Origin: Candidatus Bathyarchaeota archaeon
GTDB taxonomy: Archaea; Thermoproteota; Bathyarchaeia; Bathyarchaeales; Bathycorpusculaceae
Direction of reading: 5' to 3'
Length of the DNA stretch: 64,000 nt
NCBI GenBank assembly: GCA_963782525.1
Contig: CAWAKC010000005.1
Coordinates: forward strand, 57,385-121,384
Shown: piece by piece, positions 23,003-44,803 of the stretch
Position numbering within the stretch: the stretch's first letter is position 1
How the letters are laid out: each line of letters begins with the position of its first letter
Position numbers and translations under genes: made by a program
The notes under the pieces: model-generated
Seen by the model: the letters and a program-made list of their open reading frames with translations, nothing else
Database searches by the model: none
What the model was told of the DNA's origin: nothing

Positions 23003-23019
23003 GTGGACCGGGCGGGATT
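23003..23019 (-). repeat. att-like copy of tRNA-Ala 3' end
   Basis: GTGGACCGGGCGGGATT identical to 42962..42978, same orientation. Confidence 0.8.
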
Positions 23020-23157: not shown

Positions 23158-23234
23158 CCAATCATCAATTTCCTCCCCTTAAAAAAAACTCACGTGTTTA
23201 TTCTGTTGCAGAATTATTTTCTATGGTTTGAAAA

Positions 23235-26664: not shown

Positions 26665-26990
26665 AATCTACTCCAACAAAGTAACTATTGTATTTTTATA
26701 AAGCATATCGGTTGGCGCCCGCGAACTCCGTCTTGAAAAATTCCAATCCTATTAGGAAAGAATTGTTCGGCATCGCTAATTTTTTTAAAATCGTGCAAAA
26801 GCACATTTAACACAGCTCAACATGAACTTCCTCTTCCTCTTTATTTGCAATCAATTATAGATCCTAAAGCAGGGCTAAAAATAATATTAAAAAGTTGTCT
26901 TAAAGAGTGCATCACTTGCGGGACACGTGAAGGTGCAGCGCTCGATGAAAATGCATAAATTCGTATTCTCTTTTGATATTTTAGGAGTGA

Positions 26991-27392: not shown

Positions 27393-27749
27393 ACTCGATC
27401 TTGGCGCAGCACTTAATCGCACTTTCTTTTTTTGTTTGATTAGGTTAGAGCATACTTAGCTATCTGCCTTAGCACCTTAGATATTACAAAATGTTTCTAC
27501 ATTTCTTTTCTACACTCTATTAACGTTGACTTCTTAAGAACCGCTAGTGCGGATATTTTTTTAGTTTCGGAAAAAGCGGGGGACAGTTGTTTATTTTACT
27601 GTGACTTTTAGTTTTTGTTTTGGTGTTTTCTTGTTTTCGCTCATAAAATTCGCTATGTTACGGCAGCTGCCGGAATTATTTAATTATTTATAGTTGTCAG
27701 CATGTAGCCACATTGTCCGCGGGCTAAACTATGGTGATTTTGTGCTGAA

Positions 27750-28312
27750 CAATTTTGTTGAATGGCAAAAGCCAATGCTAGCCGAGCCGCAGGACATGCC
27801 TATGTATGCGCCTAAAGTGCGCGTTTGGGATTTCGCAACCGCAGCTGAAGGGGAAACTGCCAACCTGACTACACGAACTGTTTGCTCGCTACGCTAGTTA
27901 GTGGTCAGATGTTTATTTTGGATGTAGGCGTTTTCAGGGTTCGCCAAAGCAGATCGAGGATAGCGTTAAGATGTGTGATAAGCTGAACGGTAGAGCGGAT
28001 TCTGTCCACATTGAGCAAGACAAAGGTTCAGCGGGCAAAAACCTGGTGGATCAGTATAGCCGCAATGTTCTGTTAGGTAGTGTTGTTGTCGCGGAGTCTC
28101 CCACTGGCAACAAGGAGGTTAGAGATGCGCCATTGGCTAACGCTCTGCGGAACGAGGCAACGTCAATTCGTCAGGGGCGTTTGGTACACGGCTTTTCTGG
28201 AAGCGGTGGAGGCTTTCCCGTTGGTACTCATAAAGATTAGATGGACTGTGCGGCTTATGCCTACAATGTTTTGCACAGAGGGGCTAGACCGCCAAGAGTG
28301 AGGCACGCATGA
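27750..28312 (+). pseudogene. Phage terminase large subunit, C-terminal nuclease domain remnant
   Basis: Across frameshifts: VRVWDFA..PDYT..MFILDV..RFQGSP..IEQDKGSAGKNLVD..SPTGNKEVR..PLA..GVW..FLEAVEAFP..THKD*MDCAAYAYNVL; 5' boundary approximate. Confidence 0.8.
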
Positions 28313-28527
28313 ATCGACCCAAAATCTGGAAGATCCAGAAGGATCCGTTGAAGCATCCTTGGGATAAGCTGCGCTAGAAGCCCGGGATCACGATTAAGGC
28401 AACGGCAAGGAACAGCTGAATTGAAGCGGAGGTTTCTACCGCAAACTAATCTAAGACTGAGAAGTTGAAAATAAATAAGTCACCGATAACCGCGCGGGTT
28501 GTTTTGAGCAACATTTTTCTTCGTTGT

Positions 28528-28941
28528 CTACTCCGGCTTTGGTGGCGGCGTGTCTGGCTGTAACAGCCCAAAGGCGTTGCCTTCAGGATCTGCAACAATT
28601 GCAAACCATCCAACTGTGGGTATAACGTTTTTTGGCACCAGGATTTTTCCGCCTTCTTTGATTACCATGGCCGTGTATTTGTCGATATTTTCTATGCTTA
28701 TGTAGTTGACTTGTGGTGCGCTTTGCATTCCGGGTGTGCGCGGATATAGCCCGCCGTTTACTCCTGGACGCTGAGTCGTTCCCTTCTCGTCAACGGGAAC
28801 CGTAGTTATATTGTAGTATTCTACATTTGGCATAGGGGCTTTCGTGATTTTCCATCCTAGTACATTTTCATAGAATTTTTGGAGTTTCTTAAAATTGTTT
28901 GCAGGAATTTCAAAATGAACAACTGTGTGATCCAATTTCAT
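28528..28941 (-). CDS. VOC / glyoxalase-family protein
   Basis: VVHFEIPA..FYENVLGW, GVNGG, ADPEGNAFGL. Confidence 0.92.
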   Translation of the reverse strand: MKLDHTVVHFEIPANNFKKLQKFYENVLGWKITKAPMPNVEYYNITTVPVDEKGTTQRPGVNGGLYPRTPGMQSAPQVNYISIENIDKYTAMVIKEGGKILVPKNVIPTVGWFAIVADPEGNAFGLLQPDTPPPKPE

Positions 28942-29160
28942 ACAACTCTTTTGTTTAGGATTTCAAACTCAGCTGTTAAGTTAAGTATATGTGTTTGTTC
29001 TATGCCTACCACATGCGGTTAAGCCCTTAAACATATAGAACCAAGAAAAGAAAATATGAAACAAGCAAAAGAGTCTTGCAGATAATAGTTCGGATGCTAA
29101 ATGCCCTTAGGAATTAGCTATGAGTTTTAACATAGTCTGAAACGGGTTCAGACCACATTA

Positions 29161-29183
29161 TGGACTGGGCGGGATTTGAACCC
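29161..29183 (-). repeat. Second att-like copy of tRNA-Ala 3' end
   Basis: TGGACTGGGCGGGATTTGAACCC, 22/23 identical to 42963..42985. Confidence 0.8.
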
Positions 29184-29387
29184 AATTGGGTTCAAACCAC
29201 AATAACAAGTGGAGCAGAAAATTACTAAAATGATCAATCGGGAACACTGTAAATTGATATTGGTGCCAAACTAAGCCGTACCGGACTTAACCCCTACACA
29301 GACTGTGTAAAAACCTGGAGTCAAAACCAAAGAGCGCTTGGCATTCATACCTGTTCTAAGGCATAGTCAATAGTTGCCTTGGCTTTT

Positions 29388-30857
29388 TTACGCCCTCAAA
29401 AAAGAAATCAACATACCAACTCCGAGTATATTGATGGCCCTTCTAATGTTATAGGCCAACATTGTAAACCCGACTTCTCCTTTAACCTTCCGAAGTCCCT
29501 TTAAAAGCAAATATCCCTGATTGAAAGCCCGTTTAATTGTTCCAAACGGGTGTTCCGCCAACATACGCCTCAAACACACCTTCTCTTTTCCCTCAAAACT
29601 CTTCAACCTAAGCCTAAGACGATCAACGGCACCATCATACTCTCCTCTGAACATGTACCTTCCACGCTTATTCCTCGTACACTTACCTCTCTCCAAACAA
29701 GAAGCACAACACATCGACCGGTACAACCTACCCTCAAAACCCTTGCCACGATTACTATGCTTCCAAAAAGGCATATCGTTTCCCGCGGGACAAACATAGA
29801 CGTCTCTGGCAGCATCATAGACAAAACGGTCAGAATAAAACTCAGGTACAGGAACACCTACACGCTTATACGGATTCATAGCCTCAGGTATCGGCATAAA
29901 CACAGTTACACCGTTGTTCTCGCAGTCAAAAACGTCCTTCTCAACATAGAACCCCTTACCACTCACAACATCCAGCCTGTCAACACATAGGATCTGTTTT
30001 GCTGCTTCTGCATCCTTGGCAAGTTGATGATGGTCAGTTGAATTGTTTATCACGTCATAATCCACAATGAGGTGCCTTTTGGCATCCACGGACGTTTGGA
30101 TGTTGTAGCTGACCTCGAGTCTTTGGCTGTCAACGCGCATCAAACGGCTATCTGGATCCACCAGCGAAACCTCCTTCTGGCCTGTCGCCTTCATTTGGTT
30201 TTGAACTTGCTCGTATCGTTGCTTTTCTTCTTCAAGCTTGCCTATCTTGTCATTGAGACCATCAACCTTGAGGCACTCATCTTCATCTGAATCTGCCGCT
30301 GCCGTGTCGTTTTGGTCCATTTCTTTGAGGTACTCTGCTATCTTTTCTTCTGTTTTTTTGAGTCTCAAAGCGACTGTTTTGTCGTTGAGGTTATTGCTTC
30401 TTGAGTTCACGGCTTTGAATTTGGTGCCATCAATGGCAACGAGTTGAGCACCATACAAATCGAGGTTTCTGCAGAGGTAAACGAATTCTTTGAATACCGG
30501 TTTGATGCAGTCTACGTTGTCTTTGCGAAAGTCAGCTATGGTTTTATGGTCTGGAGCAAGTTTTTTCATAAGCCAAATGACTTCGAGGTTTCGGTGGCAT
30601 TCTCGCTCAAGTTTCCTGCTGGACCGAACCTGGTTGAGGTAGCCATACACGTAGAGCTTGAGCAGATCTGAAGGATCATATGATGGTCTTCCCGTCTCAC
30701 TTGGGGTGGAATGTTTGAAGCCGAGCTTCTCTATTTTGAGGCTTTCAACAAAGGCGTCTATGAACCTTACAGGGTTTTCTTTGTCGACGTAATCGTCGAG
30801 CATGTCTGGGAAAAGCACTGCTTGCTTTCTGTGGTTACCAGTTACGTGCTCACTCAT
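29388..30857 (-). CDS. IS1182-family DDE transposase
   Basis: GRPSYDP, SSRKLERECH, PDHKTIADFRK, IDGTK, YNIQ, YVCPAG, EHPFGTIK. Confidence 0.95.
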   Translation of the reverse strand: MSEHVTGNHRKQAVLFPDMLDDYVDKENPVRFIDAFVESLKIEKLGFKHSTPSETGRPSYDPSDLLKLYVYGYLNQVRSSRKLERECHRNLEVIWLMKKLAPDHKTIADFRKDNVDCIKPVFKEFVYLCRNLDLYGAQLVAIDGTKFKAVNSRSNNLNDKTVALRLKKTEEKIAEYLKEMDQNDTAAADSDEDECLKVDGLNDKIGKLEEEKQRYEQVQNQMKATGQKEVSLVDPDSRLMRVDSQRLEVSYNIQTSVDAKRHLIVDYDVINNSTDHHQLAKDAEAAKQILCVDRLDVVSGKGFYVEKDVFDCENNGVTVFMPIPEAMNPYKRVGVPVPEFYSDRFVYDAARDVYVCPAGNDMPFWKHSNRGKGFEGRLYRSMCCASCLERGKCTRNKRGRYMFRGEYDGAVDRLRLRLKSFEGKEKVCLRRMLAEHPFGTIKRAFNQGYLLLKGLRKVKGEVGFTMLAYNIRRAINILGVGMLISFLRA

Positions 30858-31039
30858 GGCTGTTCGCTTCCTTCTGCAGGTTCATCCACTATGACTAGGT
30901 AGACTGTTTTGCCCATGTACTCTTTTGGGCAGGTGACTTTGGCGCCTGTTCCGTAGGCAGTGACTTTTCTTTTTAAGAAGCCGACTATTCCTGTGACTTT
31001 GATTTCTGTTGCTGGCTCAAAAACTATTTTCTTAGGCAT
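30854..31039 (-). CDS. DUF2080-family transposon-associated small protein (AbrB-like)
   Basis: KRKVTAYGTGAKVTCPKEYMGKTVYLVI; inside the TIRs; ATGA overlap with transposase. Confidence 0.8.
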   Translation of the reverse strand: MPKKIVFEPATEIKVTGIVGFLKRKVTAYGTGAKVTCPKEYMGKTVYLVIVDEPAEGSEQP

Positions 31040-31309
31040 ATATAGCTGATATTAATCAATTATACATATAAAACTATCATTCCCTCGAAAACCTAACATA
31101 GTTTTCACACACTCTGTACACGGTATGAGTCCCTACACCAAAATTATTGAATAAGACTAATCTTTGCAAATTTTGACCAAGTTTGAAGGTGCCCGTCTCC
31201 ATACCCAAAAAGATTCAAAACTTTTCTTAACACTTGACTTCTGATTTTTTTCTCAAAGCGCTGGGTGGGGGATTCTAGACCCAATTTACCAGTAAAAGAC
31301 TCAAATTGA

Positions 31310-31420
31310 GTAGGACTGGACTTACCCCAAAATGGCATGAGTTTCTACATCATGGTTGCAATAATGGCTGCAGTTGCTTTGAGTCTCGCGTTGGTTTCCA
31401 AAAGAAGAGGCTGGATATAA
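31310..31420 (+). pseudogene. Orphan C-terminal TM fragment, CorA-like end
   Basis: ...LPQNGMSFYIMVAIMAAVALSLALVSKRRGWI* with no upstream body. Confidence 0.35.
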
Positions 31421-31494
31421 AGGAAAACGCTGGTTTATGTGAGCAATATTAAAATATTAGTTAGAAAAGCTAATTGTTAGAAGATGCAATTAAT

Positions 31495-31968
31495 ATGACT
31501 TTGTCCCCAGAAGAAGCCGCACGCCAATTACTTGAAGTAATTCCAGTCGTCATGAAAGAGATACGTTCGGAAATGCGTAGTCGAAGATCACCAGACTTAA
31601 CAGTTCCTCAGTTTCGCGCCCTTTCTTTCATAAGCCGAAACGTCGGTTCCTCGCTTTTGGATGTGGCAAATCATCTCGGTTTGACTCCACCCTCAACATC
31701 TAGGCTAGTGGACGGGTTAATTTATCGTAACATGATGACAAGGGAAGATCATCCAGACGATAGGCGACGGGTAAAATTAACTGTAACTCATGTTGGAGAA
31801 CAGATCTTGGAAGCCTCGCGTCAAGAGGCATTAACCTATTTGTCCACAAAATTAAGCAATATTAACGCTGACGACAGAGAAGCCATCGTTAAAGCCATGA
31901 ACGTTTTGCAGCCAATCTTCACAAGTGCTGCAAAAACCAGAAGGGGTTGTAATAAATGTTTATTTTAA
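31495..31968 (+). CDS. MarR-family transcriptional regulator
   Basis: LTVPQFRAL, VANHLGLTPPSTSRLVDGL, DDRRRVKLTVT. Confidence 0.92.
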   Translation: MTLSPEEAARQLLEVIPVVMKEIRSEMRSRRSPDLTVPQFRALSFISRNVGSSLLDVANHLGLTPPSTSRLVDGLIYRNMMTREDHPDDRRRVKLTVTHVGEQILEASRQEALTYLSTKLSNINADDREAIVKAMNVLQPIFTSAAKTRRGCNKCLF

Positions 31969-32753
31969 CAACGGAGCATCTTACCCGCCGCTTTGGAGAC
32001 CTGACTGCGGTTGATGACCTGACCATATCAGTTGAGGAAGGGGAAATCTTCGGTCTCCTCGGTCCTAACGGCGCTGGCAAATCGACCGCAATCAAGATGA
32101 TTACCACCCTTTTGCCTCCGACCTCTGGATGTGTTAGTGTCGGCGGTTTTGACTTGGCGCATGGCGCAAACAAGATCAGAAGATTGATTGGCTACGTGCC
32201 CCAAATCCTCTCAGCTGATGGAACACTCACAGCCAGCGAAAACCTCACTGTCTTCGCAAGCCTATATGACATTCCAAGAAAGGAACGTTCCAAAAGAATT
32301 GACGAGTCGTTGGCATTAATGGAACTCACGGAAGCCTCGGATAAACTTGTGAAAAATTATTCGGGCGGCATGATTAGACGTTTAGAGATAGCACAATCAA
32401 TGCTTCATCGACCTAAAGTTCTGTTCTTGGATGAACCAACTATAGGTCTTGATCCTGTTGGGTGCAAAGCAGTTTGGGACCACATCCAAAAACTACGCGA
32501 TAACTTTGGTACAACCATTTTTCTTACAACACATTACATGGAAGAGGCAGACAAATTGTGTTCCAGAGTGGCTATTATGCATTTAGGAAAATTAGCTGTT
32601 GTCGGTGTACCAGCCGATTTGAAGATGTCTCTATATTTAGACAATGCGACACTTGAAGATGTGTTTACGCATTACACTGGAGGAGCACTCGACAGGGGAG
32701 ACAGTTACCGAGAAGCAAGAATGACAAGACGAACAGCGAAGAGGCTCGGTTAA
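31956..32753 (+). CDS. ABC exporter ATP-binding protein (DrrA-like)
   Basis: GPNGAGKS, YSGGM, FLDEPT, TTHYMEEA. Confidence 0.95.
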   Translation: MFILTTEHLTRRFGDLTAVDDLTISVEEGEIFGLLGPNGAGKSTAIKMITTLLPPTSGCVSVGGFDLAHGANKIRRLIGYVPQILSADGTLTASENLTVFASLYDIPRKERSKRIDESLALMELTEASDKLVKNYSGGMIRRLEIAQSMLHRPKVLFLDEPTIGLDPVGCKAVWDHIQKLRDNFGTTIFLTTHYMEEADKLCSRVAIMHLGKLAVVGVPADLKMSLYLDNATLEDVFTHYTGGALDRGDSYREARMTRRTAKRLG

Positions 32754-32754
32754 A

Positions 32755-33561
32755 ATGGCCACAGTTAAATTGAAGACCGCCTACAACTCAGTCAGTTGTT
32801 TCTTTAGTAAAACTTTGAGTATAGCCGCAATGGATGTTCGGAAACTTCGTCATGACCCAACTGAATTGATTACTCGTGCAGTGCAGCCAGCGCTTTGGCT
32901 GCTGGTCTTCGGAGAAGTTTTCACAAGAGTGCATATCATACCGACGGGTAATCTGTCTTACTTATCTTTCATGGCGCCGGGGATTTTGGCTCAAAGCGTA
33001 CTTTTCATAGCTATATTTTTCGGCATAACTGTTATTTGGGAACGAGACCTAGGTATTATCCATAAGTTTTTGGTCAGCCCTACTCCTCGTGAAGCATTGG
33101 TTCTTGGAAAAGCCTTGTCCGCAGGAGTCCGTGCTCTTTCTCAGGTGGTTATCATTTATGTGTTGGCTATGTTGATTGGTGTTGGAATAAATTGGAATCC
33201 CATAAATCTAACATTGGTCGCAGTCGTCGCAGTATTGGCTTCAGCAGTGTTCTCCACATTTTCGCTCATCATAGCTTCGGTCGTGAAGACAAGGGAACGT
33301 TTCATGGGTATAGGTCAAATCTTAACCATGCCCCTGTTTTTTGCAAGCAACGCAATTTACCCCTTGTCCATGATGCCGAGTTGGCTGCAAGCGGTGGCAC
33401 AGGTTAACCCACTAACATATACAGTTGATGCTTTGCGAGGGCTTATGATCGTCGGAGGAACCAGCGTGTATGGTGTTGGTTTGGACATGCTTGTACTTTT
33501 AGTAAGCATGATAGCCTTGATAATAATCGGCGCTAAGCTCTATCCGAAAGTGATCGTTTGA
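32755..33561 (+). CDS. ABC-2 type exporter permease
   Basis: 6 TM; FMAPGI, NPLTYTVDALR. Confidence 0.92.
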   Translation: MATVKLKTAYNSVSCFFSKTLSIAAMDVRKLRHDPTELITRAVQPALWLLVFGEVFTRVHIIPTGNLSYLSFMAPGILAQSVLFIAIFFGITVIWERDLGIIHKFLVSPTPREALVLGKALSAGVRALSQVVIIYVLAMLIGVGINWNPINLTLVAVVAVLASAVFSTFSLIIASVVKTRERFMGIGQILTMPLFFASNAIYPLSMMPSWLQAVAQVNPLTYTVDALRGLMIVGGTSVYGVGLDMLVLLVSMIALIIIGAKLYPKVIV

Positions 33562-33682
33562 GACTCTTTCTTGCTAAGGATAAGCTATCGTTAAAAAATA
33601 AATTCTTGAAGCATTCAACAAAAGTAGAAGCATCTCCGCTAGAATTTGAAGCAATCCCTTAAGCAGCATTTTTACCGGTAAA

Positions 33683-33711
33683 CGGGGGTTCAAATCTCTT
33701 CCCCGGCGCCA
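33683..33711 (+). repeat. tRNA 3'-end remnant (tRNA-Ser-like), att scar
   Basis: CGGGGGTTCAAATCTCTTCCCCGGCGCCA: T-arm, acceptor strand, G discriminator and CCA with no 5' half. Confidence 0.65.
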
Positions 33712-33879
33712 TTTTTTAGAGCTAATTTCAAGGCTATTTTTTAGAATAGAGTATAATTTAACCATATCTAGCATTTCTTTCAAAACAGTCAAAATTTGAG
33801 AAGGATTTCTTACTAGTACACCAGATGCAGAAGAATTAAATTCCTTTATGGCTTAACGAATAAAGAAGTGAACAATTAA

Positions 33880-34200
33880 ATGAAAGTTACACAAGTATGT
33901 GAGACTAGTTGTTTCCAGAATGCGCATGGAGTAGATGCTAAAGAAATCTACGACTCAGAAAATGCTCAAGTCATTCACATGGCACTATCAAAGGATCAGT
34001 CATTAAAGAAACATGTAACTCCTGTTGATGTTTTCTTTTATATCCTTGAAGGCAAAGGAATTGTGGAAATTGGAGAAGAAACACAAGAGGTAGAAAAAGA
34101 TACAATAATTGATAGTCCTAAAGGCATCCCACATTTACTCCGTAACAATGGAGACGGCATCTTTCGATTTCTTGTAATAAAACTGCAAAAGTCAAAATAG
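33880..34200 (+). CDS. Cupin-domain protein
   Basis: LKKHVTPVDVFFYILEGKG...SPKGIPHLLRN. Confidence 0.9.
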   Translation: MKVTQVCETSCFQNAHGVDAKEIYDSENAQVIHMALSKDQSLKKHVTPVDVFFYILEGKGIVEIGEETQEVEKDTIIDSPKGIPHLLRNNGDGIFRFLVIKLQKSK

Positions 34201-34217
34201 CCCAACAAGGTGTCTGT

Positions 34218-34748
34218 ATGTCGTTACCTGTTGATATGTTGATAAATGAACACAAACTAATAATCCAAGCAGTCGATGCAATCAAAAAAAGAATAGCCAT
34301 AATCAAAACAAGCCAAACTATTGAGCCAAATAACATAACGGTTATGGTTGATTTTTTCAGGGTATATGCTGACAGGTTTCATCACGGAAAGGAAGAAGGC
34401 ATACTGTTTCGGGCACTGTACCAAAAGAAGATGAAAGAAAATGATAATAAAATTATGAAAGACCTAATGCAAGAACATGCTTTTGTACGAAAAACCGTGG
34501 CTTCCTTAGAAAAAGCTAATCAAAGCTATGCTTCAGGTAAAAAAGAGGCGCTCAAAGAAATATTGGAAATGTTATCCACATTGTCAACATTCTATCCTAA
34601 GCACATCGAAAAAGAAGATAAACAATTCTTCTATCCTTGCATGGAGTATGTTTCTCCAGAAGAAAGAGAACAGATGATGAGCCAATTCCAACAGTTCAAT
34701 TTTAGTTTTACCGATAACAGGTACACGCAAGTGATAAAATCATTATAG
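34218..34748 (+). CDS. Hemerythrin-like (HHE) domain protein
   Basis: LINEH, HHGKEEGILF, QEH, HIEKEDKQFF. Confidence 0.9.
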   Translation: MSLPVDMLINEHKLIIQAVDAIKKRIAIIKTSQTIEPNNITVMVDFFRVYADRFHHGKEEGILFRALYQKKMKENDNKIMKDLMQEHAFVRKTVASLEKANQSYASGKKEALKEILEMLSTLSTFYPKHIEKEDKQFFYPCMEYVSPEEREQMMSQFQQFNFSFTDNRYTQVIKSL

Positions 34749-34866
34749 CAACAAATTCTTCTGATACACAAGCTCACAATCTATGAGAAACAACAGTTTA
34801 AACTCACATTTTCTTAGTAAAAAGTGTAGAAGAACATAATTACGCTATAGGACATTACGCTTACTC

Positions 34867-35463
34867 ATGAGATTGCTAAACGAAACTCTATCCGACCTCA
34901 AAGTCTACGCAAGAAAGAAATATTCCTTGACTAAAAACGCTCCAGTCCTTGTTATCCTAGTGACCGAACAGGAGCATAAGATTCTAACAGAAACCTACAC
35001 TAAACTAATGCAAGATTATGAAAAGAGCACAACCGCAAGTGATGGGTCTGACGAAGAGCATTCGCCAATTACCTCTGAGGAGTTCTTCCCAAATGTCGCT
35101 AGTATTTTCGAACTTGCACATAATTATTCTAAAGAAACAACGCCTATTGTCACGCCAATGCTGAGAGATGCGTTTGACATTCCCCATTTTGAAAAATACA
35201 AGTATGCTATCTTAATTCGAGAAGAGAAACTGCTTGAATGGGGTAGTCAAATGGATATTCAGGTGGATGGTGCGCAAGCTACGGGTAAGAAACGGAAACT
35301 TGTTATCTTTTACAGGATACTTGCACAAGAGTTTCTTCACGTGGTGGAATGCGAAAAAGGTATTCAAATATTCGGAAACAATGACAGTGCAGATTCTGAG
35401 ATAGTGCAACGAGCGTTGAAGGCAGTTAAGGTATTTCGTGATATCGATATCTTTTCTGAATAG
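34867..35463 (+). CDS. Hypothetical protein
   Basis: 198 aa intact ORF; QEFLH may be a degenerate HExxH. Confidence 0.6.
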   Translation: MRLLNETLSDLKVYARKKYSLTKNAPVLVILVTEQEHKILTETYTKLMQDYEKSTTASDGSDEEHSPITSEEFFPNVASIFELAHNYSKETTPIVTPMLRDAFDIPHFEKYKYAILIREEKLLEWGSQMDIQVDGAQATGKKRKLVIFYRILAQEFLHVVECEKGIQIFGNNDSADSEIVQRALKAVKVFRDIDIFSE

Positions 35464-35507
35464 CGGTTAGTTTATTTGAAACTCTTAAAACTCGGATAAA
35501 TGCAGAG

Positions 35508-35768
35508 TCATGGAATTTGTGTCATATTGTCACGCAGAGCCAACCAACGTTTAAACTCTAGTCCTGTGCACTTGCCTTTCCCTATGCAGTTGTTACCGTA
35601 CTTCTTTCTCAGCTTCTCGTTGTAGGAGTCAAAAGTTTCTGATTCACTTACTTCTATGCTATCTTTCTTCTTCACTAATTTATAACTCCAATTTGATTCT
35701 TGTGCATATCTCTTCTTAAAGTTACGTCTAACTGTTAACATTGAAAAGCAGAAGTCAGTTACTTCCAA
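35508..35768 (-). CDS. Hypothetical protein or gene fragment
   Basis: Lys-rich 86 aa ORF in a decayed region. Confidence 0.3.
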   Translation of the reverse strand: MEVTDFCFSMLTVRRNFKKRYAQESNWSYKLVKKKDSIEVSESETFDSYNEKLRKKYGNNCIGKGKCTGLEFKRWLALRDNMTQIP

Positions 35769-36262
35769 ACAAGCATGCTAAACCTTGCAACATATCACAT
35801 TCAGATTTTTTCCGATAGACCGCACATCGATTATTTTCAAGGAACATGCCACAAGCCACCATGCCTAAACTGCAAAAATTCCATTCTTTCAAGTAATCTT
35901 ACTTGTAATTTGGGTACTTCTCATAGACCTGGGGCTGCATAGTTCGCAACCGCATGTCGGCTTTTCTTACAGAGGCCTTTTCACTATTCTCAGTCAGCAC
36001 CATTCTATCCAACCTGAAACACTCTTTTCTAACCTATACAACTTAGCCCCTGGAACACTCTTTAATGGAGAAGAGCGAATGCAAATACCTAATTTTGTGA
36101 ATTTAACCAGAGCCCACTCAGCCCTCGTCTTGTTCTCCAATGTTTTTTTAGAAAAGCATATAGACTGGGAAAAAACCGTCAGCTCCAGTCATAGTATTAC
36201 GAATAGCACACGCTGATTTTGGCTAAACTATATTTGGGAGCTTAAAAAAAGAAGAGATTGCA

Positions 36263-36691
36263 CTATAATATGTAAATTCCCAGCTCTATTAATTTTGGAA
36301 GACTGTTAATTTCTATAGCTTTTGTTCCAGTCACTAAACGCGAAATCCCTGCACTAGCTTGGGCTCCTGCTGTAGCTACGAGGTCGGCTTTATACGAAAG
36401 TGTTATTGTTATTCCTGCTTGTTTTAACTCGTTTGCAGTATCAATTAGCGTTTCGCGCATGCTCATGGCGGTTTTGACCATTTGGGGGCTTTCTTTGGCG
36501 GTTTCGGTTGTGCTGATGTTTTTGCTATCTTTGCGTACGCTTGCGATTAAGTCTTTTATGAACTCCTTATCTTTTAAGTTAACATCGATTCTTTTGTTTA
36601 CTGCTACAACTTCAAGGTTTTCTTTGTTATTTGTTGATAGCGTTACTTTCCCTGATTCAAGCATTTGCCCCATCATCGTTACTATTTGCAT
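36263..36691 (-). CDS. Hypothetical protein
   Basis: 142 aa; co-oriented with the upstream ORF. Confidence 0.7.
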   Translation of the reverse strand: MQIVTMMGQMLESGKVTLSTNNKENLEVVAVNKRIDVNLKDKEFIKDLIASVRKDSKNISTTETAKESPQMVKTAMSMRETLIDTANELKQAGITITLSYKADLVATAGAQASAGISRLVTGTKAIEINSLPKLIELGIYIL

Positions 36692-36722
36692 GTTTTGCCC
36701 GCCATAGACATGGATTACGGCG

Positions 36723-36986
36723 CTACTTTATTTTACTTGATTTGCTCGGAGAATCAGTTTCAGCTTCTTTTGCATAAACAACGTCTAAGATTATTGCACC
36801 GTTTAGCTTTGCCTTCATCAACCCAACGTCAAGAGTAAGGTCTTCGAAACTGAGTTTCAAGTCCGATTCTTTACCTGCAAGTTTGTCAATGATTGCTAGG
36901 AGGGTATTTGCCATTGTTTCAGCAGTTTTTTCCATACCGTGAGCAGTCTTTTCTGATATGCTAGAATTTTTTTCCATTAAAATCAC
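36723..36986 (-). CDS. Hypothetical protein
   Basis: 87 aa; TTTATA box upstream on - strand. Confidence 0.65.
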   Translation of the reverse strand: MILMEKNSSISEKTAHGMEKTAETMANTLLAIIDKLAGKESDLKLSFEDLTLDVGLMKAKLNGAIILDVVYAKEAETDSPSKSSKIK

Positions 36987-37423
36987 ACACTTTAAAAGTG
37001 ACTTTCAGTGATATAAACTTTTTAAAAAACCAAAAATTGTTATTCACTGTTCATAACATTTTGCTCCATTTCAAATCACCTCTCTTAGCTGCGAGTGCAT
37101 TTTCTTAGGCGTGTCAGAGGTTTTAGCGGCTGGGTACTTGTTTTTTTGGCTGCAATCTCAGATGCCCCTGTGCTGTTGGTTTATGTTTATCAGAAGTCTC
37201 CAAGGAATAACTTGCCTGTTTAACCGAAAACGGATAACCATTTCACTGCAATATGTTCCAGAAAAAAGTCAGCATCCGTTAAAAGAACCATCGGCAACGG
37301 TGCATAACTCAAGCATAGGCGTTTATGGGGTTGAATAACTTTTCCATGGGGCATTTTATTTGTCCGTTCATTGTTGCAGTCTATTCAGTAACTGAACAAG
37401 CCAACTCTTTTTCTTTCTTATTT

Positions 37424-37786
37424 TCAACATGAGATTAGTGGGGCTGATTGTATTCGGATGCTGTCGGTTCCCATATTTTTACAGATGATGTTGAGTGAGT
37501 TTTCGGTGAAATTTAGTAGTGCTTTGCCGTCGTTTGTGAGTTGGTACACTTTTCTGGGACGTTCTGTATCCACGTTCCAGTTGCTCTTTACGTAGCCTTT
37601 TTTCTCCAGTAGTCCTAGTAGGGGGTAGACGGTGCTGGGTCCGAAGTAGACGCCGAAGCCTTTGCGGATTGTAGTTATGAGTTGGTATCCGTGCATGGAT
37701 TTTTGGTCTAGATATTGAAGGATAATCATGTCTAAGAGGCCTTTGGTAAGTTTGGTTTGGACTTCTTTTTGATATTTGTTATTCAT
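37424..37786 (-). CDS. PadR-family transcriptional regulator
   Basis: KGLLDMIIL, MHGYQL, GPSTVYPLL, RPRKVYQLT..G; start set at MNNKY. Confidence 0.92.
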   Translation of the reverse strand: MNNKYQKEVQTKLTKGLLDMIILQYLDQKSMHGYQLITTIRKGFGVYFGPSTVYPLLGLLEKKGYVKSNWNVDTERPRKVYQLTNDGKALLNFTENSLNIICKNMGTDSIRIQSAPLISC

Positions 37787-38171
37787 TCTTTTTTTTCTCC
37801 TGTTGCTGTGATGTACGTGTGAACAATATGTCTTTTTAAGACACATCTCTTACGTCTTCATAATGTCCCAACAGCCAAATAAACCCTCGGACATAACGTA
37901 AGCATATCAAAACCCTTCAGACTACCTGATTGTTGAACACAAGAACAGATCAATACATGAAATACAGCCCAAAAATCAATATTTCAATTCAGCAAGGAAA
38001 CTGTACAACAGAAAGACAAAAAACCCGTCAAATAATTAGCGGTTGACTTGTTGTTGATTGCGAGCCAACATTATTTTATATTTTTTTAAAATGCATTTGG
38101 CAACAGCCAACAAACTTGCTAAGTGGGTTCGGCTGCTAACGCTTGATCCGGCAAATCCCCCTCTATTTCTA

Positions 38172-38206
38172 CGTCTAATCAGATGTTAGCACATGGCTAA
38201 ATCCAC
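38172..38206. repeat. Dispersed repeat, copy B (partner at 23123..23157)
   Basis: 30/35 identity. Confidence 0.7.
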
Positions 38207-38719
38207 TTAACGCAAAATATTTTGCCCCTATTACTCGAGAGTCAGAATCCTTTTTTAATATAGAAATATCGCCCGATTTTTAACTCTGCGAATCTAACGC
38301 TTAACAGTTTAACAGAATCAGCAAAGCAATCTTAATCTATTTCCACATGTATTTTGGGTGGAAAAGGTTGAGGGGTAGCTTTTAGGAGAAAAGTGGGGTA
38401 AATGTCTGAGTAAACCCAACTGCCCAACCCCTCAGCCCTAACGAGTTATTCAACTGATTTAGGTTAAATAATTTTGGATAATCCAAAAAATAGATGTGTT
38501 TGTTGCATCAATTTTTCTCGTTTTTTCTGGGCAATTACATTTAGCTCAATTGCGTAAATCTCCTTATGTTGAAGAATAGCGAAGGCAGTTTTGAGTTTTT
38601 AACTAGCATCTCCAAAAGACTTTAGTGCACAGTAGGGTCAGGGCTAAAAGTAATGCGCGATTCAAGAAAAATCATTAAGTGTTCTTCAAAAACAAAAAAC
38701 TAAAAGAAGATGTAATTTT

Positions 38720-38788
38720 TTACCATTCTTCCTCTTCCCATTCCTCATCTTCAGTTTCTTCCCATTCCTCTTCCTCTATGAATATCAT
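38720..38788 (-). CDS. 22-aa acidic Trp-repeat micropeptide
   Basis: MIFIEEEEWEETEDEEWEEEEW*; SD GAGGTGA 9 nt upstream. Confidence 0.5.
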   Translation of the reverse strand: MIFIEEEEWEETEDEEWEEEEW

Positions 38789-39096
38789 GTGCTTATTTCA
38801 CCTCACACTGTGCCTAAAAAGCTATCGTACCTTCGAAAGCCTTAAGCATTTACATTCGTCAAATGACGTTAAAAATCGTCAATGTAAACAAGTTAATCAT
38901 GCCTCAAGCAAGAAAGAGCGTTTTTTTAATTATCCTGGACCATCATCATCGTAAGTGAACTAGTTACGCGTGCGATGGGTTTTATTCGTGATTTAGTTAT
39001 TTCTCTTAGATTTTGGTTTACGAAACAACTTAAAATCATCCATCATTCACGTAACGAATAAAAATAGTGGGCAGGCTCTTAGATAAGTAACTCTAA

Positions 39097-39270
39097 CTAT
39101 TCAAGTTCTTCACTTGAAACAAGAAACACTGGGTACTCTTGTGAACCTGCTGCTTTGTTACCGGTGTTTGTGTGGCCTTTCATACATCTCATTCCGTATC
39201 TTGTTTTAGTTTCATTTTCCCAAACCTTTTCCGTTGATCCACCACATATTGGACACCTAAAATCTTTCAT
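39097..39270 (-). CDS. Small zinc-ribbon protein (57 aa), not in ORF track
   Basis: MKDFRCPICGG...RYGMRCMKGH...; SD AGGTGA upstream. Confidence 0.65.
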   Translation of the reverse strand: MKDFRCPICGGSTEKVWENETKTRYGMRCMKGHTNTGNKAAGSQEYPVFLVSSEELE

Positions 39271-39576
39271 ATATTTTCACCTAAAACCAAAGCTTCTCTG
39301 AAAAAGTCAAAAGTAAATAAGTTGTCGCTGTGTTTTTTCATATTTCTTTGTTCCTTTAGTTTTATATTGACTTGTTTTTGTTAAGCCTTCCTATTGTTTA
39401 AGCCTTCAAAAAATCTAAATACCCAAAATAGAAAATAAAAAATGGAGAATCAAAATGAGTGACATAGTTATTCTTGAAAACAAGAAGGGTAGCAGACTAT
39501 TCAAAGACCGCTTTATTCACGAAGATCAATGCTAACTTATCGCAGACATGCAATATTACTATGATAAAAAAAGAAG

Positions 39577-39816
39577 TTAAGGCTTAACGACTTCTGTGCT
39601 GGGTGGTTTTGTTTTATCGAGCCATTTCTTTCGCCACGCTTGAAGATCATCAATAAATAAGTCGTATTTGAGCCGATAATAGTCTTGGTCATAACGATCT
39701 TTGTATTTTATAGCGTTTTCATCAGGGAAATCTGCGTTTGCCTCATCTAAAACCTCTTTAATGTATGCATCTAATTTATCACGGATTTCAGTGTAGAGTT
39801 TGCCTTGTGTTATCAT
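39577..39816 (-). CDS. Small hypothetical protein
   Basis: 79 aa helical ORF with purine-rich upstream. Confidence 0.55.
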   Translation of the reverse strand: MITQGKLYTEIRDKLDAYIKEVLDEANADFPDENAIKYKDRYDQDYYRLKYDLFIDDLQAWRKKWLDKTKPPSTEVVKP

Positions 39817-40163
39817 GTTTCTTCAACTCTTCCTTAGCTTTATCTAGCAATCTATTTATTTAGTTGCCACTTCTGGAGCGCATTATTCATGCTTTAAACT
39901 TACTGTTTAACATAAACAGCTCTGGTATTTTATAAGGCGGGTCCCTTGCTGCAAAAAATGCAAGATTTACTTCTGTTTCTACTGCTCTCTCCAACTTCCA
40001 ACAATTCAAAATACAATAAAGAGAGAATGCCCTATGTGCGGTGGAAAATTCGAGTCGATCTCTTTCTTAAGATTTTTTGGGTCCTGTTTCATTGATTGTT
40101 TCAGTTTTGTTTCAGCCAACTACCATAAGCCCCCATGCACATATCATTATATGATGATGAACC

Positions 40164-40468
40164 ATGAGTAAAACAAAAATCGTAATAGCCTTGGTCGCAG
40201 TTGCGGCGTTGACCTTGGTCGCTGTTGGGTTGGCTTCTGCTCAAATAGCAGCCAACCAAACCTACACCGGCACACTCCCCAACACGGCAGCACCCAACAA
40301 CGGATTCTTTGGCTGGATGGGCAACTGCTTTGGATTCAGAAACAGCCAAAACCCAGCAGCAACCAGAACGTAGCCCCACAAGTGCCGCCTACAGCCAGTT
40401 CAGTTTCGGCACCCAACCAAGACAGCTATGGGTACGGATACGGCTATGGACCCTGCATGAGAAGATAA
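40164..40468 (+). pseudogene. Small secreted Gly/Tyr-tail protein, frameshifted
   Basis: Signal peptide; continues in another frame as NQNVAPQ...SYGYGYGYGPCMRR*; span 305 nt. Confidence 0.55.
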
Positions 40469-40521
40469 TACGTCTTTAAAACTCATTCCAGAAACCTTTT
40501 CTTAATTCTTTCTTGGAGTGT

Positions 40522-41544
40522 TTATCTTTTTTGTTTTGGGCATTCGTTGCCTAGACACCAACCATACTTTTGGATGGTTCTGCAGCTGTAGGGTCTAACT
40601 TCGTTTTTTTCTACTTTGTTGGAAAAAAACCAGTTCACTTGATAGCTTGTTATGGATTCGTCAAAATCGTTAAGGCACCGGAAAAGGTCAATTATGCTCT
40701 CAGGGCTATGAAACCCAAGAGAATACGCTTCCTGCAAGAGGGCTAATCGTTGCTGATGACACATCTCACCCGAGTTCAGGGCTTTAACAAAACAGGGTCT
40801 AATTCCATCAGAGTTCTCAAAGATCAAATTTCTTGCAACATAATTGACTCTTTTTTCATTGAGTGCTTTTCTAAATTCTCTTGCTTTATCCATCGCTGAC
40901 ATAATGTCTTTTTGCTTGAGTCCATAGAGCTTGAAATATTCAACACTTCGAACTTTATCCTGTTCTAGTTGGCTATCAACTACGAGGCATTCTTCACCCG
41001 ATTTCTCATGAACAGAAAATGGAATACGGCACATCCGATTAATGTCGCCAACAACCGCGTAGTCAATAAATCGATAATCGTGATCTTGCAAAAGTTCAAG
41101 CTGAAGCTGCCTGTAAACCTGCTTCCAAAACTCAAGTTCCCGATTTATTTCGTAAATAGAGTCAAAGAAAACATGCACATGAAAACCCCGCCGAGTCCTT
41201 ACAACAAGTGGTTTAATGTTTAGTGTACCGAGGTGTTTTAGAAAATATTTCACTTCATCCCGCAGCTCTGACTTTCGTTTTTGGGTTTCTGCTTCGGCAA
41301 TTGAATCGCTTTTTTTGCAGTAGTCAAAGTCGAAAAATATCTTCTCTATGCCTAAGGGTTGTGCTTTGTCTTTCTCTGGTTGAACGCTTATGAACGCTGG
41401 TGCCTTGTTTTCGGCGCATTCCTCAATAAACGGAAAAATATCGTTAGGGTTGTCGGTGAACCATCTTTCTGGGATTCCCAAATCTCGTCCGAAAGATCCG
41501 AAAAACTCCGAAAGAAATTGTTCTTTTGTTACATGGTTCTCCAT
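40522..41544 (-). CDS. Fused archaeo-eukaryotic primase (PriS catalytic + PriL-like Fe-S C-terminal domain)
   Basis: FFDFD, RGFHVH, GDINRMCRIP; C-terminal RPC...YSCRTIQKYGWCLGNECP. Confidence 0.82.
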   Translation of the reverse strand: MENHVTKEQFLSEFFGSFGRDLGIPERWFTDNPNDIFPFIEECAENKAPAFISVQPEKDKAQPLGIEKIFFDFDYCKKSDSIAEAETQKRKSELRDEVKYFLKHLGTLNIKPLVVRTRRGFHVHVFFDSIYEINRELEFWKQVYRQLQLELLQDHDYRFIDYAVVGDINRMCRIPFSVHEKSGEECLVVDSQLEQDKVRSVEYFKLYGLKQKDIMSAMDKAREFRKALNEKRVNYVARNLIFENSDGIRPCFVKALNSGEMCHQQRLALLQEAYSLGFHSPESIIDLFRCLNDFDESITSYQVNWFFSNKVEKNEVRPYSCRTIQKYGWCLGNECPKQKR

Positions 41545-41574
41545 TGCGGTTCCCTATATTCGTCTTAGGGTTAC

Positions 41575-42192
41575 TTACCAGTCGTCTCTTTTGCTTATTT
41601 CTTCTTGTTTTTGGTCTTGTTCTATTTCACGATAAATATTTTTTGCGGAAGATGTAACAACCGTTAGATCTGTACCTGCAACACTTTTCACGGTTGGAAT
41701 TTTCACCAATCTTTCTTCTCTAGTTTTTTGTACATATTGAACAGCCATTTCTTTAGAGGTGAAATTTAGCTTTTCACCAGAAGACCACATCTCATACATT
41801 TCCACCCTAAACAAGTATTCCTCTGCACCAATTCCCTTCATATCCACGATTAAAAGAAACTCAAAAGTGTCATTTAGTAGAGTACTTTGAGGTATGCTAA
41901 TTGTTGTTGAATTGAGCAGGTGCTCTTGAAAATATAGATCTAAGTTAACTTTTGAAAAAGATGCTTTTGAAGGCAATAGGCTAAAGTCAACTTTAAAGGC
42001 TAACTCGTCTTCTTTGGTTGTCTCGGAGACGCTGTTGATCACTATTTCTTTTGTTGACTTAATTGGCTCTTTATTTCTGTTAATGTTGAATTGAAAAGAG
42101 AGGTCTTCAAGCGTTGATTGCTTTTTCTGCTTAACATTAACTGATATTATCTCTCTTTTTTGCTGATTCTTAGATAATCTAACCATTCTCAA
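41575..42192 (-). CDS. Hypothetical protein (beta-rich core)
   Basis: 205 aa; 30 nt upstream of the primase, same strand. Confidence 0.7.
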   Translation of the reverse strand: MRMVRLSKNQQKREIISVNVKQKKQSTLEDLSFQFNINRNKEPIKSTKEIVINSVSETTKEDELAFKVDFSLLPSKASFSKVNLDLYFQEHLLNSTTISIPQSTLLNDTFEFLLIVDMKGIGAEEYLFRVEMYEMWSSGEKLNFTSKEMAVQYVQKTREERLVKIPTVKSVAGTDLTVVTSSAKNIYREIEQDQKQEEISKRDDW

Positions 42193-42348
42193 ATCAACTA
42201 TTCATTTCAACTGGATAATATATTAGGCAATGTTTAATGATGTATTCTCTGTCCAATCTTTGCATAATAACTTTGCCTGGTACTAACGAAAGGTTAAATC
42301 CAAAATCAATCATAATAACGCATTGAATAGACAACCGGAAATGAAATT

Positions 42349-42666
42349 ATGAACTTAGCGGTCGAGCTTAAAAAACTTCAGGGCAAGCGTTTGACAACTC
42401 TTTACCAAAACAAACCTTTTGAAATCAATCAAGTTTCAAATGACCAAATAATTCTCAAAACGACCAAAGAATCACGTCACCCTATAACCATGAAAGAAAT
42501 AAGACTTGCCTGGAACCATTTAGAAAAATGTAAAAAATTAACACGATCAGAAGCGCGAGATTTGGGGGATTCTGAAATTAACCCTACTTATGTAATGGCT
42601 ATACTTGCAAGCTTGCCCGGAGTTACTCACAGTCTTGGGCCAATCATACTAAGGCTCCCTGAATAG
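42349..42666 (+). CDS. Hypothetical protein
   Basis: 105 aa intact ORF near the island end. Confidence 0.65.
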   Translation: MNLAVELKKLQGKRLTTLYQNKPFEINQVSNDQIILKTTKESRHPITMKEIRLAWNHLEKCKKLTRSEARDLGDSEINPTYVMAILASLPGVTHSLGPIILRLPE

Positions 42667-42959
42667 TATGCTTGTGATTGTTGGCCTCATTTTTAGAAAA
42701 CAAATTTGCCTGTTCCAAGTTTCCGCTGCCAACCTCATTCCGTGCAATGAGAGTTGCTGGCAAGAACTAAATGAAAAATCAACACAACTTGACCCTATCG
42801 CGCTATAGCTAGAAAATACTCGGCGTAAGCGGTTAAATCAAAATGTTTGAGCGAAAAGAAAAACCATAGTTATTTGCGAAAGCCTCAAAACTGATACTTT
42901 TGCGGTATAAAACTTGCCAGCTGTCTTTCAACTGAATAAACAAAATAAATACTGCGATT

Positions 42960-43037
42960 TGGTGGACCGGGCGGGATTTGAACCCGCGGCTTCCGCGTTG
43001 CGAACGCGGCGATCATACCGAACTGATCTACCGGCCC
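42960..43037 (-). tRNA. tRNA-Ala(CGC), intronless, CCA encoded
   Basis: GGGCCGG...CCGCG-TT-CGC-AA-CGCGG...GGTTCAAATCC...CCGGTCC-A-CCA; G3.U70 Ala identity pair. Confidence 0.97.
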
Positions 43038-44227: not shown

Positions 44228-44803
44228 TTGGCTGTTGAAGGTTTTTTCGAAAACAAAAAGGAACCTGTAGAAGCAAAAGTCGGCGACTTAACCCCACAAT
44301 CAAAAGCGGTTAACGTTACGGCCAAAGTAGTATCCAAAACAGAAGTACGTGAAATTCCAATGGGCAGAGATGGCTCTGCACACAAGGTATCTGACGCACT
44401 CATTGGCGACGAAACTGGCGTAGTGTATCTAACCCTATGGGATGATAACATAGAGAAAGTCAACGAAGCAGACACAGTGCGCATTGAAAACGGGTATGTA
44501 ACACTCTTCAAAGGAAACATACGCCTAAACATAGGCAAATACGGCAAACTTGAACCGGCAAAAGAGCCACTCGCAGTGGAAGTTAACACAGAAAACAATG
44601 TTTCAAGCAAAACATACGAGCAAGAACGCAGACCATTTAGAGGCGGCGGACGAGGATTCGGTGGCGGCGGCGGATACGGTGGAGGACGAGACAGACGCGG
44701 TGGCGGAGGATACGGCGGTGGCGGCGGTTACGGTGGCGATCGACGCGGTGGCGGAGATCGACGCGGTGGCGGCGGCAGCGGCGGTTACAGACCAAGATAC
44801 TAA
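44228..44803 (+). CDS. ssb: Single OB-fold ssDNA-binding protein with RGG-rich tail
   Basis: IGDETGVVYLTLWD, IENGYVTLFKG..RLNIGKYG; Gly/Arg/Tyr tail. Confidence 0.88.
   Translation: MAVEGFFENKKEPVEAKVGDLTPQSKAVNVTAKVVSKTEVREIPMGRDGSAHKVSDALIGDETGVVYLTLWDDNIEKVNEADTVRIENGYVTLFKGNIRLNIGKYGKLEPAKEPLAVEVNTENNVSSKTYEQERRPFRGGGRGFGGGGGYGGGRDRRGGGGYGGGGGYGGDRRGGGDRRGGGGSGGYRPRY

Follow-up and report, generated by a model that had tools for sequence, protein, structure and literature searches.

In a 64,000-nucleotide stretch of the genome of a Candidatus Bathyarchaeota archaeon (the window, below), a gene of 340 codons encodes in a single chain the catalytic domain of an archaeo-eukaryotic primase (AEP) and, behind it, a small domain with four cysteines that resembles the C-terminal domain (CTD) found in the primase large subunit, PriL. 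A preliminary description of this locus had called the product a compact single-chain PriS-PriL primase near the tRNA end of an island, and had proposed that it is either the replication protein of an integrated element or a domesticated second primase. The analysis reported here makes it highly probable that the gene specifies a self-contained DNA primase of a lineage of mobile elements and viruses of Bathyarchaeia and does not belong to the replication machinery of the host.

The translation agrees exactly with the motif string given at the outset, that is, DFD, GFH, and GD..R..R.P followed by RPC...SC-x8-C-x4-C in an open reading frame (ORF) of 340 amino acids (aa). The N-terminal part contains D72-F73-D74 (in the context IFFDFD), G120-F121-H122, and G166-D167..R170..R173-I-P175, and thus all three motifs of the AEP superfamily, which are described as hhhDhD/E (I), sxH (II), and hD/E (III) by Kazlauskas et al. 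(PMC5862659). R173-I174 corresponds to the "Rh" motif IV described by the same authors (PMC5862659), and its surroundings, an RIPxSxHxKSG stretch, align with DVKRLIRIPNSLHGKSG of Sulfolobus PriS in a search of PDB sequences with the family profile. Among 26 homologs that are 42 to 84% identical to the window primase, D74, G120, H122, R173, P175, and H179 are invariant, and no fewer than 90% of the sequences keep D72 and D167. The motif pattern persists down to 28% identity in a wider set of 20 sequences that includes viral copies.

Family and structure searches likewise identify an AEP. The window primase scores 26.9 bits with the Pfam family PF01896 against a cut-off of 26.8; eight scanned homologs all remain under that cut-off (14.1 to 26.0 bits), and 23 of the 26 family members match at an E value of ≤0.05. 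With phmmer, the Prim-Pol domain of the Marinitoga CRISPR-associated Prim-Pol (CAPP; 7nqd) is matched at E 1.9e-5. An AlphaFold (AF2) model of the primase, made from the 26-sequence alignment with a mean pLDDT (predicted local distance difference test) of 89.2, yields a Foldseek probability of 1.0 to CAPP, RepB', the PrimPol of cyanophage S-2L, and PriS of archaea and eukaryotes; the match to chain 7p9j_B has an E value of 2.4e-7. In VIA-align, the best AEP match is again CAPP (7nqd_A; Z 13.8, root mean square deviation [rmsd] 3.8, 187 residues aligned), followed by 3h20_A (Z 13.2), yeast and human Pri1 (Z 11.9 and 11.8), and Sulfolobus (1zt2_A) and Pyrococcus PriS (Z 11.4). In all, 13 AEP chains match at Z 13.8 to 10.4, so the AEP catalytic fold is present, and the scores are too closely spaced to assign the core to any single AEP clade. 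Between its motifs I and II, PriS has a Zn site with four ligands, as seen in PriS structures. In the window primase, the corresponding residues 75 to 119 make up one helix with a single Cys; hence, the PriS-type Zn site is missing and the AEP part is a minimal core. In the model, a long helix (residues 211 to 233) and a flexible, low-confidence linker (235 to 240) join this core to the C-terminal domain. No PriCT or winged-helix Pfam family matches the 340-aa protein at E≤1. Seven of 120 listed homologs are longer, with 486 to 507 aa (P0013, P0033, P0035, P0036, P0037, P0039, and P0040; L005:7554-9023 is listed alongside), and carry an N-terminal extension of ~150 aa with weak winged-helix matches, which the window primase lacks.

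The C-terminal domain comprises ~100 aa, is helical, and carries the elements R249-P250-C251 and S320-C321-x8-C330-x4-C335. R249, C251, H263, R266, C321, and C330 are invariant in the 26 homologs, D293 is likewise listed as invariant, and C335 is conserved in at least 90%. In the wider set, which reaches down to 28% identity, all four Cys are retained in 18 of 20 diverse members, viral copies included; one locus (L026) has lost the last two. For comparison, we aligned PriL of the host and of 23 other genomes of the class. In these 24 Bathyarchaeia PriL sequences, the invariant cysteines C231, C304, C313, and C320 (host numbering) form the pattern C-x72-C-x8-C-x6-C, nearly equal to the C-x69-C-x8-C-x4-C of the fused primase. 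The alignment of family residues 236 to 340 with these PriL sequences by hhalign reached a probability of 97.6% (E 2.7e-12; 89 columns, residues 244 to 333 of the fused protein against 228 to 316 of PriL). It pairs C321 with C304 and C330 with C313; a His and an Arg of PriL stand opposite H263 and R266, and the string DFDER-like DFdER.TRYQVEH stands opposite DFDE..T.YQV. The controls gave no more than 0.2% (0.2% with PriL reversed, 0.1% with an unrelated family, and 0.2% with only the AEP part). Furthermore, a HMMER profile of the whole fused family matches canonical PriL in class genomes through its positions ~220 to 350 alone (E ~1e-11), these matches coincide with the places of PF04104 in all six genomes compared, and the profile finds a match at E≤1e-3 in 123 of 151 genomes of the phylum. 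Judged by these sequence comparisons, the domain is a true homolog of the PriL C-terminal Fe-S domain, as the preliminary description had expected, and its four cysteines most likely hold a 4Fe-4S cluster. A recent capture of the domain from the host PriL was considered and rejected: the host PriL scores 28 bits and some PriL sequences of other classes score 44, which indicates that the homology is old.

In the modeled structure, residues 236 to 340 are matched best by the Fe-S (6-4) photolyase PhrB (4dja_A; Z 7.6, rmsd 3.1, 96 aligned), followed by other photolyases and cryptochromes (Z ~6), PriX (5of3_C; Z 6.1), the yeast PriL Fe-S domain (6di2_A; Z 5.9), and human PRIM2 (8d0k_E; Z 4.8). The photolyase fold is linked to the PriL-CTD, and the set of matches to the model is the neighborhood expected for such a domain. 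Conceivably, the domain might instead be a PriCT- or PriX-like helix bundle that binds Zn or is purely structural, serving DNA binding only and holding no Fe-S cluster. PriX, which is free of a cluster, matches the model as well as the PriL-CTD does, and a relationship among PriCT-1, PriCT-2, PriX, and PriL-CTD has been reported (PMC5862659). Also, the last three Cys (C-x8-C-x4-C) have the look of a zinc knuckle, with a marginal match to a RanBP-type Zn finger (E 4.6), and one family member does without all four Cys in a frame that is still open. Such a bundle is nevertheless quite improbable, given that the four Cys equal the ligand set of the class PriL in number and nearly in spacing, that two of them align directly, that they are retained by nearly all of the diverse members, that the Pfam PriCT families give no match at E≤1, and that the best fold match is a photolyase that does bear Fe-S. 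The exceptional member (L028:7977-8942) has lost all four Cys at once and lies on a long tree branch; it may be a natural cluster-free variant. Their joint loss fits the view that the four Cys form one ligand set.

The fusion is less complete than the term PriS-PriL implies. While the Fe-S domain of PriL is there, the PriL N-terminal domain, which docks onto PriS, is not: only ~100 residues follow the AEP domain, and hhalign and Pfam cover the CTD alone. The proposed fusion of PriS and PriL therefore holds for the PriL C-terminal Fe-S domain and not for the PriL N-terminal domain or the PriS Zn site. As anticipated, the host (2.87 Mb in 12 contigs) has separate PriS and PriL genes (73 and 107 bits), both on contig C7, and the open frame of its PriS is 413 aa long, compared to the ~230-aa AEP domain of the fused primase. 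The host also has a third AEP-like ORF of 263 aa (L062:8361-9152; G000:C1:522361-523152), which matches PF01896 at 27.9 bits over profile positions 11 to 76 only. Its neighbors are genes for a Fe/Mn superoxide dismutase, an ODP/flavodoxin protein, a pyridine-nucleotide disulfide oxidoreductase, and a glutaredoxin, and no mobile-element genes were seen near it.

The distribution of the family is patchy. It has 159 matches in a 90%-clustered collection and, in a 50%-clustered library, 955 representatives at E≤0.001 and 92 at E≤1e-30. Of the 25 loci in reference genomes, 22 come from records titled Bathyarchaeota, Bathyarchaeia, or Bathyarchaeales, whereas two bear the title "uncultured archaeon" and one "Crenarchaeota archaeon." A survey of the class found full-length copies in only 8 of 201 genomes, one of them with an in-frame TAG, and fragments in 2 more, and none of the 11 other genomes of the same genus has the fused primase. 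Two genomes from a different family within the phylum (Thermoproteota) likewise have full-length copies. Frameshifts, splits, or truncations affect at least 8 of the 25 loci (L010, L011, L014, L015, L018, L019, L020, and L029). The intact copies are under strong purifying selection, with a ratio of nonsynonymous to synonymous substitutions (dN/dS) of 0.058 to 0.122 in 21 pairs at dS near 1. In public data, near-identical or related DNA to window positions 40400 to 42700 was seen in soil and peat metagenome contigs (X1, X2, and X3). A metatranscriptome run (X16) holds contigs, derived from relatives, that are 90 to 97% alike over the 205-aa gene upstream of the primase, the 105-aa gene beyond it, and 144 nucleotides (nt) of the primase CTD region; by the account of the tool used, such contigs are no proof of transcription and uncovered parts prove nothing.

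The company that the gene keeps in other genomes is that of mobile elements. Tyrosine integrases of 422 to 426 aa are encoded just downstream of the primase in four loci (L025, L027, L028, and L029) and within ~4 kb in two others (L017 and L020). In the distant clade (28 to 36% identity), the gene order is a MazE-like gene, a 158-aa gene, a gene for a Zn-ribbon protein of 633 to 802 aa, the primase, small ORFs, and a tyrosine integrase; in L029, and partly in L025, the host housekeeping genes for eIF5A, SRP54, and Pus10 follow directly after the element genes. In the close clade, integrase remnants stand beside the DNA shared with the window (the module, below) in L006, L012, L015, and L019, and in L006 and L019 they adjoin tRNA-Val and tRNA-His genes. 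The genes flanking the module differ across all close relatives. In IMG/VR, relatives with 34 to 44% identity were found on five contigs, four of 59 to 112 kb and one of 9.8 kb, and all four annotated contigs carry capsid or tail genes of tailed viruses. A maximum-likelihood tree of 42 sequences, with a midpoint root for drawing only, unites the integrase-linked copies in one 100/100 group and places the window clade within the other 100/100 group, alongside all four viral rows.

Some neighbors of these relatives deserve mention in their own right. The Zn-ribbon proteins of 633 to 802 aa, in which the ribbon is N terminal, are encoded directly upstream of the primase in the integrase-linked clade, often overlapping it (L023:1992-3983, L024:6041-7942, L027:5738-7942, L029:5966-7945, L017:5794-7992, L022:373-2367, L021:5719-7764, L026:5977-7974, and L028:5593-8001). 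They have no informative match in Pfam, PHROG, or PDB sequences, and three of the nine contain a Walker-A-like string; possibly, they may be the helicase or initiator of these elements. In the virus-like clade, a Rad51/RadA-like ATPase is encoded three genes upstream of the primase (L013:5602-6555, L016:377-1354, and L054:7579-8559), as judged by PF08423 scores of 126 to 130 bits in L013 and L054 and by clustering only in L016. A small ORF downstream in L013 gives a subthreshold match to the N-terminal part of dATP/dGTP diphosphohydrolases (24 versus 27 bits), and in L005 a type I restriction-modification system adjoins the module.

The window copy lies in an island near a tRNA gene (Table 1), and its position near the tRNA end, as originally described, is borne out. 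The tRNA-Ala gene is located 294 nt beyond the 105-aa gene, and its 3' end (42963 to 42985) is the proximal attachment (att) copy. Further copies of this 3' end occur within the island and at its far border, where no match is expected by chance (100 shuffles). In a genome of the same genus (G187), the tRNA-Ala gene lies 1.1 kb from the homolog of the 215-aa gene that flanks the island in the window (22169 to 22816), with an aspartokinase gene adjacent. In another relative (G038), ~2.6 kb separates the two, and inside is a different, distantly related ABC-transporter operon whose proteins are 47 and 30% identical, versus 82 and 62% for the flanking genes. The same distance in the window is 20 kb. 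Thus, the island borders carry the tRNA 3' end as direct repeats, and relatives have an empty site; together, these findings define an island of 23004 to 42985 with at least two segments.

Table 1. Features of the primase locus and the surrounding island in the window
Feature	Position	Strand	Remarks
Single-chain primase gene, AEP and PriL-CTD-like domains	40522..41544	-	340 aa, ATG start, intact
AEP catalytic domain, residues 1-233	40846..41544	-	Motif I, D72/D74; II, G120/H122; III, D167; IV, R173-I174
PriL-CTD-like domain, residues 244-340	40525..40815	-	Predicted cluster ligands C251, C321, C330, C335
205-aa gene, probably 203 aa from ATG at 42186	41575..42192	-	Beta-sandwich core; directly upstream of primase
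105-aa gene, divergent from 205-aa gene	42349..42666	+	Shared module; no family match
57-aa Zn-ribbon gene of repeated module	39097..39270	-	96% DNA identity in host C3 copy
69-aa ORF, hydrophobic N terminus	40164..40373	+	tblastn to L007, L008; in some relatives' modules
tRNA-Ala(CGC), integration target	42960..43037	-	ARAGORN; orthologue in G038, G187
Internal copy of tRNA 3' end	29161..29183	.	22/23 nt; splits island into two segments
Distal copy of tRNA 3' end	23004..23019	.	16/16 nt; far border, 188 nt from 215-aa flank gene
Insertion sequence (IS) transposase (DUF772 + DDE) adjoining internal att copy	29388..30857	-	Pfam

Besides the IS transposase, the cargo of the island includes a MarR-ABC operon and genes for a cupin, a hemerythrin, a PadR protein, cation efflux, and a superoxide reductase, and the G+C content drops to 0.36 to 0.41 between 33 and 44 kb. 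PF00589 has no match in the window part of contig C5, and the integrases of relatives, used as tblastn queries, find nothing below E 0.1 in the window. The lack of an integrase in the island marks the element as a remnant. The primase is therefore an intact gene in the remnant of an element, within a composite island of ~20 kb. A search for iterons or an origin near the module returned only short two-copy repeats, none of them convincing. A direct repeat of 35 nt (86%) is present at 23123 to 23157, ~100 nt inside the far border, and at 38172 to 38206 in the primase-proximal segment; it may be an element-end sequence. Just outside the island, past a glutamine cyclotransferase gene, 44228 to 44803 encodes a protein with an oligonucleotide-binding (OB) fold like that of single-stranded DNA-binding proteins and a long Gly/Arg-rich tail.

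The DNA held in common with close relatives is confined to 40527 to 42279, at times with 42284 to 42668 or pieces of 38532 to 40449 in addition. Its second conserved gene is the 205-aa gene, which, as the preliminary description had observed, is co-oriented with the primase; the gap is 30 nt. The encoded protein has 451 homologs, nearly all of 203 aa, so translation probably starts at the ATG of codon 3, and its dN/dS is 0.12 to 0.24. The gene stands directly upstream of the primase in six loci (L005, L006, L007, L010, L018, and L019), two further loci have remnants, and in L011 the copy is displaced. The gene is found in the absence of the primase as well, as a second copy in L018 and as host copies on contigs C3 and C8, and a hidden Markov model of the family finds none in the loci of other clades or of viruses (nine matches, all in the close clade). 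No Pfam or PHROG family covers the protein. Its AF2 model has low confidence (pLDDT 58) except in a seven-strand beta-sandwich at residues 50 to 152, which gives generic Ig/FN3 matches (Z 9.2 to 11.5; 174 chains at Z≥8) that are uninformative on function. The neighbor is thus a clade-specific beta-sandwich protein, and the linkage that had been suggested is real within the close clade but does not extend beyond it.

Other parts of the module are repeated in the host genome. A second copy on contig C3 (L061:9096-12435; G000:C3) is highly similar in the Zn-ribbon gene (96% DNA identity), the 205-aa gene (98%), and the 105-aa gene (91%), and further remnants occur at C3:330-336 kb and on C8. The 105-aa gene is also kept beside the module in L005 and L011. 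Next to the C3 copy, L061:12710-17966 encodes a protein for cytochrome c assembly, subunit I of a heme-copper oxidase (PF00115, 269 bits), and a FixO/cytochrome c protein. The Bathyarchaeia lineage is usually described as anaerobic, and these oxidase genes are therefore unexpected.

A gene that is patchy in distribution, often broken, located beside integrases and tRNA genes, and carried on viral contigs is better understood as the replication primase of mobile elements than as a domesticated second primase. Of the two roles first proposed, replication protein of an element is thus supported by the integrase remnants and viral copies, and the domesticated primase is disfavored by its absence from all other same-genus genomes surveyed. 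Domestication would mean that the gene, after the death of the element, is retained to serve the host itself, for instance in repriming or repair. The intact and selected primase in an island without an integrase could be read in this way, and archaeal primases have been reported to be active in double-strand break repair (PMC12019639). Yet a gene retained for the host would hardly be expected to be missing from its closest relatives and rare in its class, to have different flanking genes in every close relative, or to be broken at so many loci. Moreover, selection was measured between copies in different genomes and hence reflects the history of the mobile lineage. We therefore consider domestication very unlikely. 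A role in conflict, as a defense or counterdefense AEP like those of TOTE or CRISPR-associated Prim-Pol systems, is extremely improbable: although CAPP is the closest solved structure, 9 of the 26 members give weak Pfam AEP-TOTE matches (the best at E 2.5e-4), and L005 has its restriction-modification system beside the module, the TOTE matches shown all fall under the family cut-off (best, 21.2 versus 27 bits), general neighborhood family scans (PADLOC was not run) gave no CRISPR-associated or TOTE partners, the PriL-type domain points to primer initiation, and other clades conserve integrases and virion genes as partners.

As a mobile-element primase, the protein might work as follows. By analogy with PriS/PriL, D72, D74, and D167 would bind the two catalytic metals, and the incoming nucleotide would be held by H122 and R173. 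The PriL-like domain on its tether would provide the initiation site, gripping the template and the 5' initiating nucleotide, with the invariant residues R249, H263, and R266 as candidate contacts. With the initiation domain tethered in this manner, one chain of 340 aa would do the work of the PriS and PriL pair of the host, and its role would be to prime the replication of integrating elements and tailed viruses.

Several points weigh against this interpretation. Integrase, helicase, and other replication genes are absent from the island in the window (the absence of the usual helicase had been remarked on before), so that replication of an element at this site is hypothetical. The C3 module of the host lacks a primase and is followed by tyrosine integrase fragments; as the 205-aa and 105-aa genes persist there, that module can be retained without a primase. 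With regard to the C-terminal domain, the hhalign alignment places the first Cys four residues off register and stops short of the fourth. PF04104 scores 18.5 bits, below its cut-off of 22.4 (E 1.4e-3; profile positions 121 to 204 of 266), and matches at E≤0.05 in just 3 of the 26 family members. The family-profile search of PDB sequences returned AEP chains and no PriL chain; we suspect that the CTD is missing from archaeal PriL as it stands in the listed entries. The structural matches of this domain (Z 4.8 to 7.6) fall in a range that the tool calls common for helical domains. Finally, the analysis shows the domain homologies, the conservation, the purifying selection, the patchy distribution, the setting among mobile elements and viruses, and the borders of the island, whereas Fe-S binding, primase activity, the roles of single residues, and present activity in this host are properties that we infer.

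The fused architecture as such is known, in agreement with the earlier statement that such forms occur in DPANN archaea and mobile elements. A fused PriS-PriL protein is the cellular primase in Nanoarchaeota, other members of DPANN cluster 2, and Undinarchaeota (PMC3914693, PMC7414124), and PolpTN2 of the Thermococcus plasmid pTN2 is a larger fusion (PMC3973330, PMC5862659). Like the DPANN protein, with which we compared it by description only, the window primase is a short polypeptide that unites the catalytic domain of PriS with the Fe-S domain of PriL and leaves out the N-terminal domain of the latter. In DPANN, however, the fused enzyme is the only chromosomal replicative primase of the cell and a synapomorphy of the lineage, whereas the Bathyarchaeia host keeps separate priS and priL genes and the family has a patchy distribution, many broken copies, and links to integrases and viruses. 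PolpTN2 is likewise a mobile-element AEP, with a PriS-like domain joined to one that resembles PriL and has a predicted 4Fe-4S cluster. It is described, however, as also containing PriCT-1 and winged-helix domains and a C-terminal region called "large" (PMC5862659), while the window primase has 340 aa, no PriCT or winged-helix match at E≤1, and a different host lineage (Bathyarchaeia and one other family of Thermoproteota). The window primase has motif IV (Rh), and some of its N-extended homologs give weak winged helix-turn-helix matches.

The canonical PriS/PriL primase, joined by PriX in Sulfolobus, has the same catalytic motifs and the same kind of Cys-bearing helical domain in the PriL-CTD, but the fused primase differs in lacking the PriL N-terminal domain and the four-ligand Zn site and in the size of its AEP domain (~230 aa). 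In pRN1 ORF904 and CAPP, a tethered helical domain assists initiation; CAPP provides the nearest solved AEP core (Z 13.8), and matches of the pRN1 type are weak (6gt7, Z 4.0; 3m1m, Z 4.6; 1ro2, Z 4.3). The window primase resembles both in its plan of a catalytic core with a tethered helical domain aiding initiation (PMC5862659), but this domain carries the four-Cys signature of PriL and is not PriCT-1. What is new is the family itself: a compact form borne by mobile elements and viruses, with a four-Cys PriL-type domain, in hosts that retain PriS and PriL. In the literature, we found no description of a primase of this type from an element or virus of Bathyarchaeia, supplements not being covered, and the main text of PMC10848311 does not mention "primase."

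Kazlauskas et al. describe PriL and PriCT as nearly exclusive to the primases of chromosomes and of mobile elements, respectively (PMC5862659), a generalization to which the fused family is an exception. Raymann et al. raised a mobile-element origin of the DPANN primase, for which support was lacking because PolpTN2 is unrelated, and put forward the idea that integrative elements may frequently carry fused primases (PMC3914693). The present family provides concrete material for the latter suggestion and is a candidate source or sister of the DPANN fused primase. We regard it as unlikely that the mobilome lineage of ~340 aa and the DPANN single-chain replicative primase go back to one fusion; if they do, DPANN cells would have swapped PriS/PriL for a primase derived from a mobile element. 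A milder corollary would be that four-Cys PriL-type domains, besides PriCT, are common in the primases of archaeal mobile elements. As a naturally minimal primase in one chain, the protein may offer a tractable model for the part that the PriL-type domain plays in primer start and for the purpose of the cluster. In Bathyarchaeia, it marks mobile elements that have so far been poorly described.

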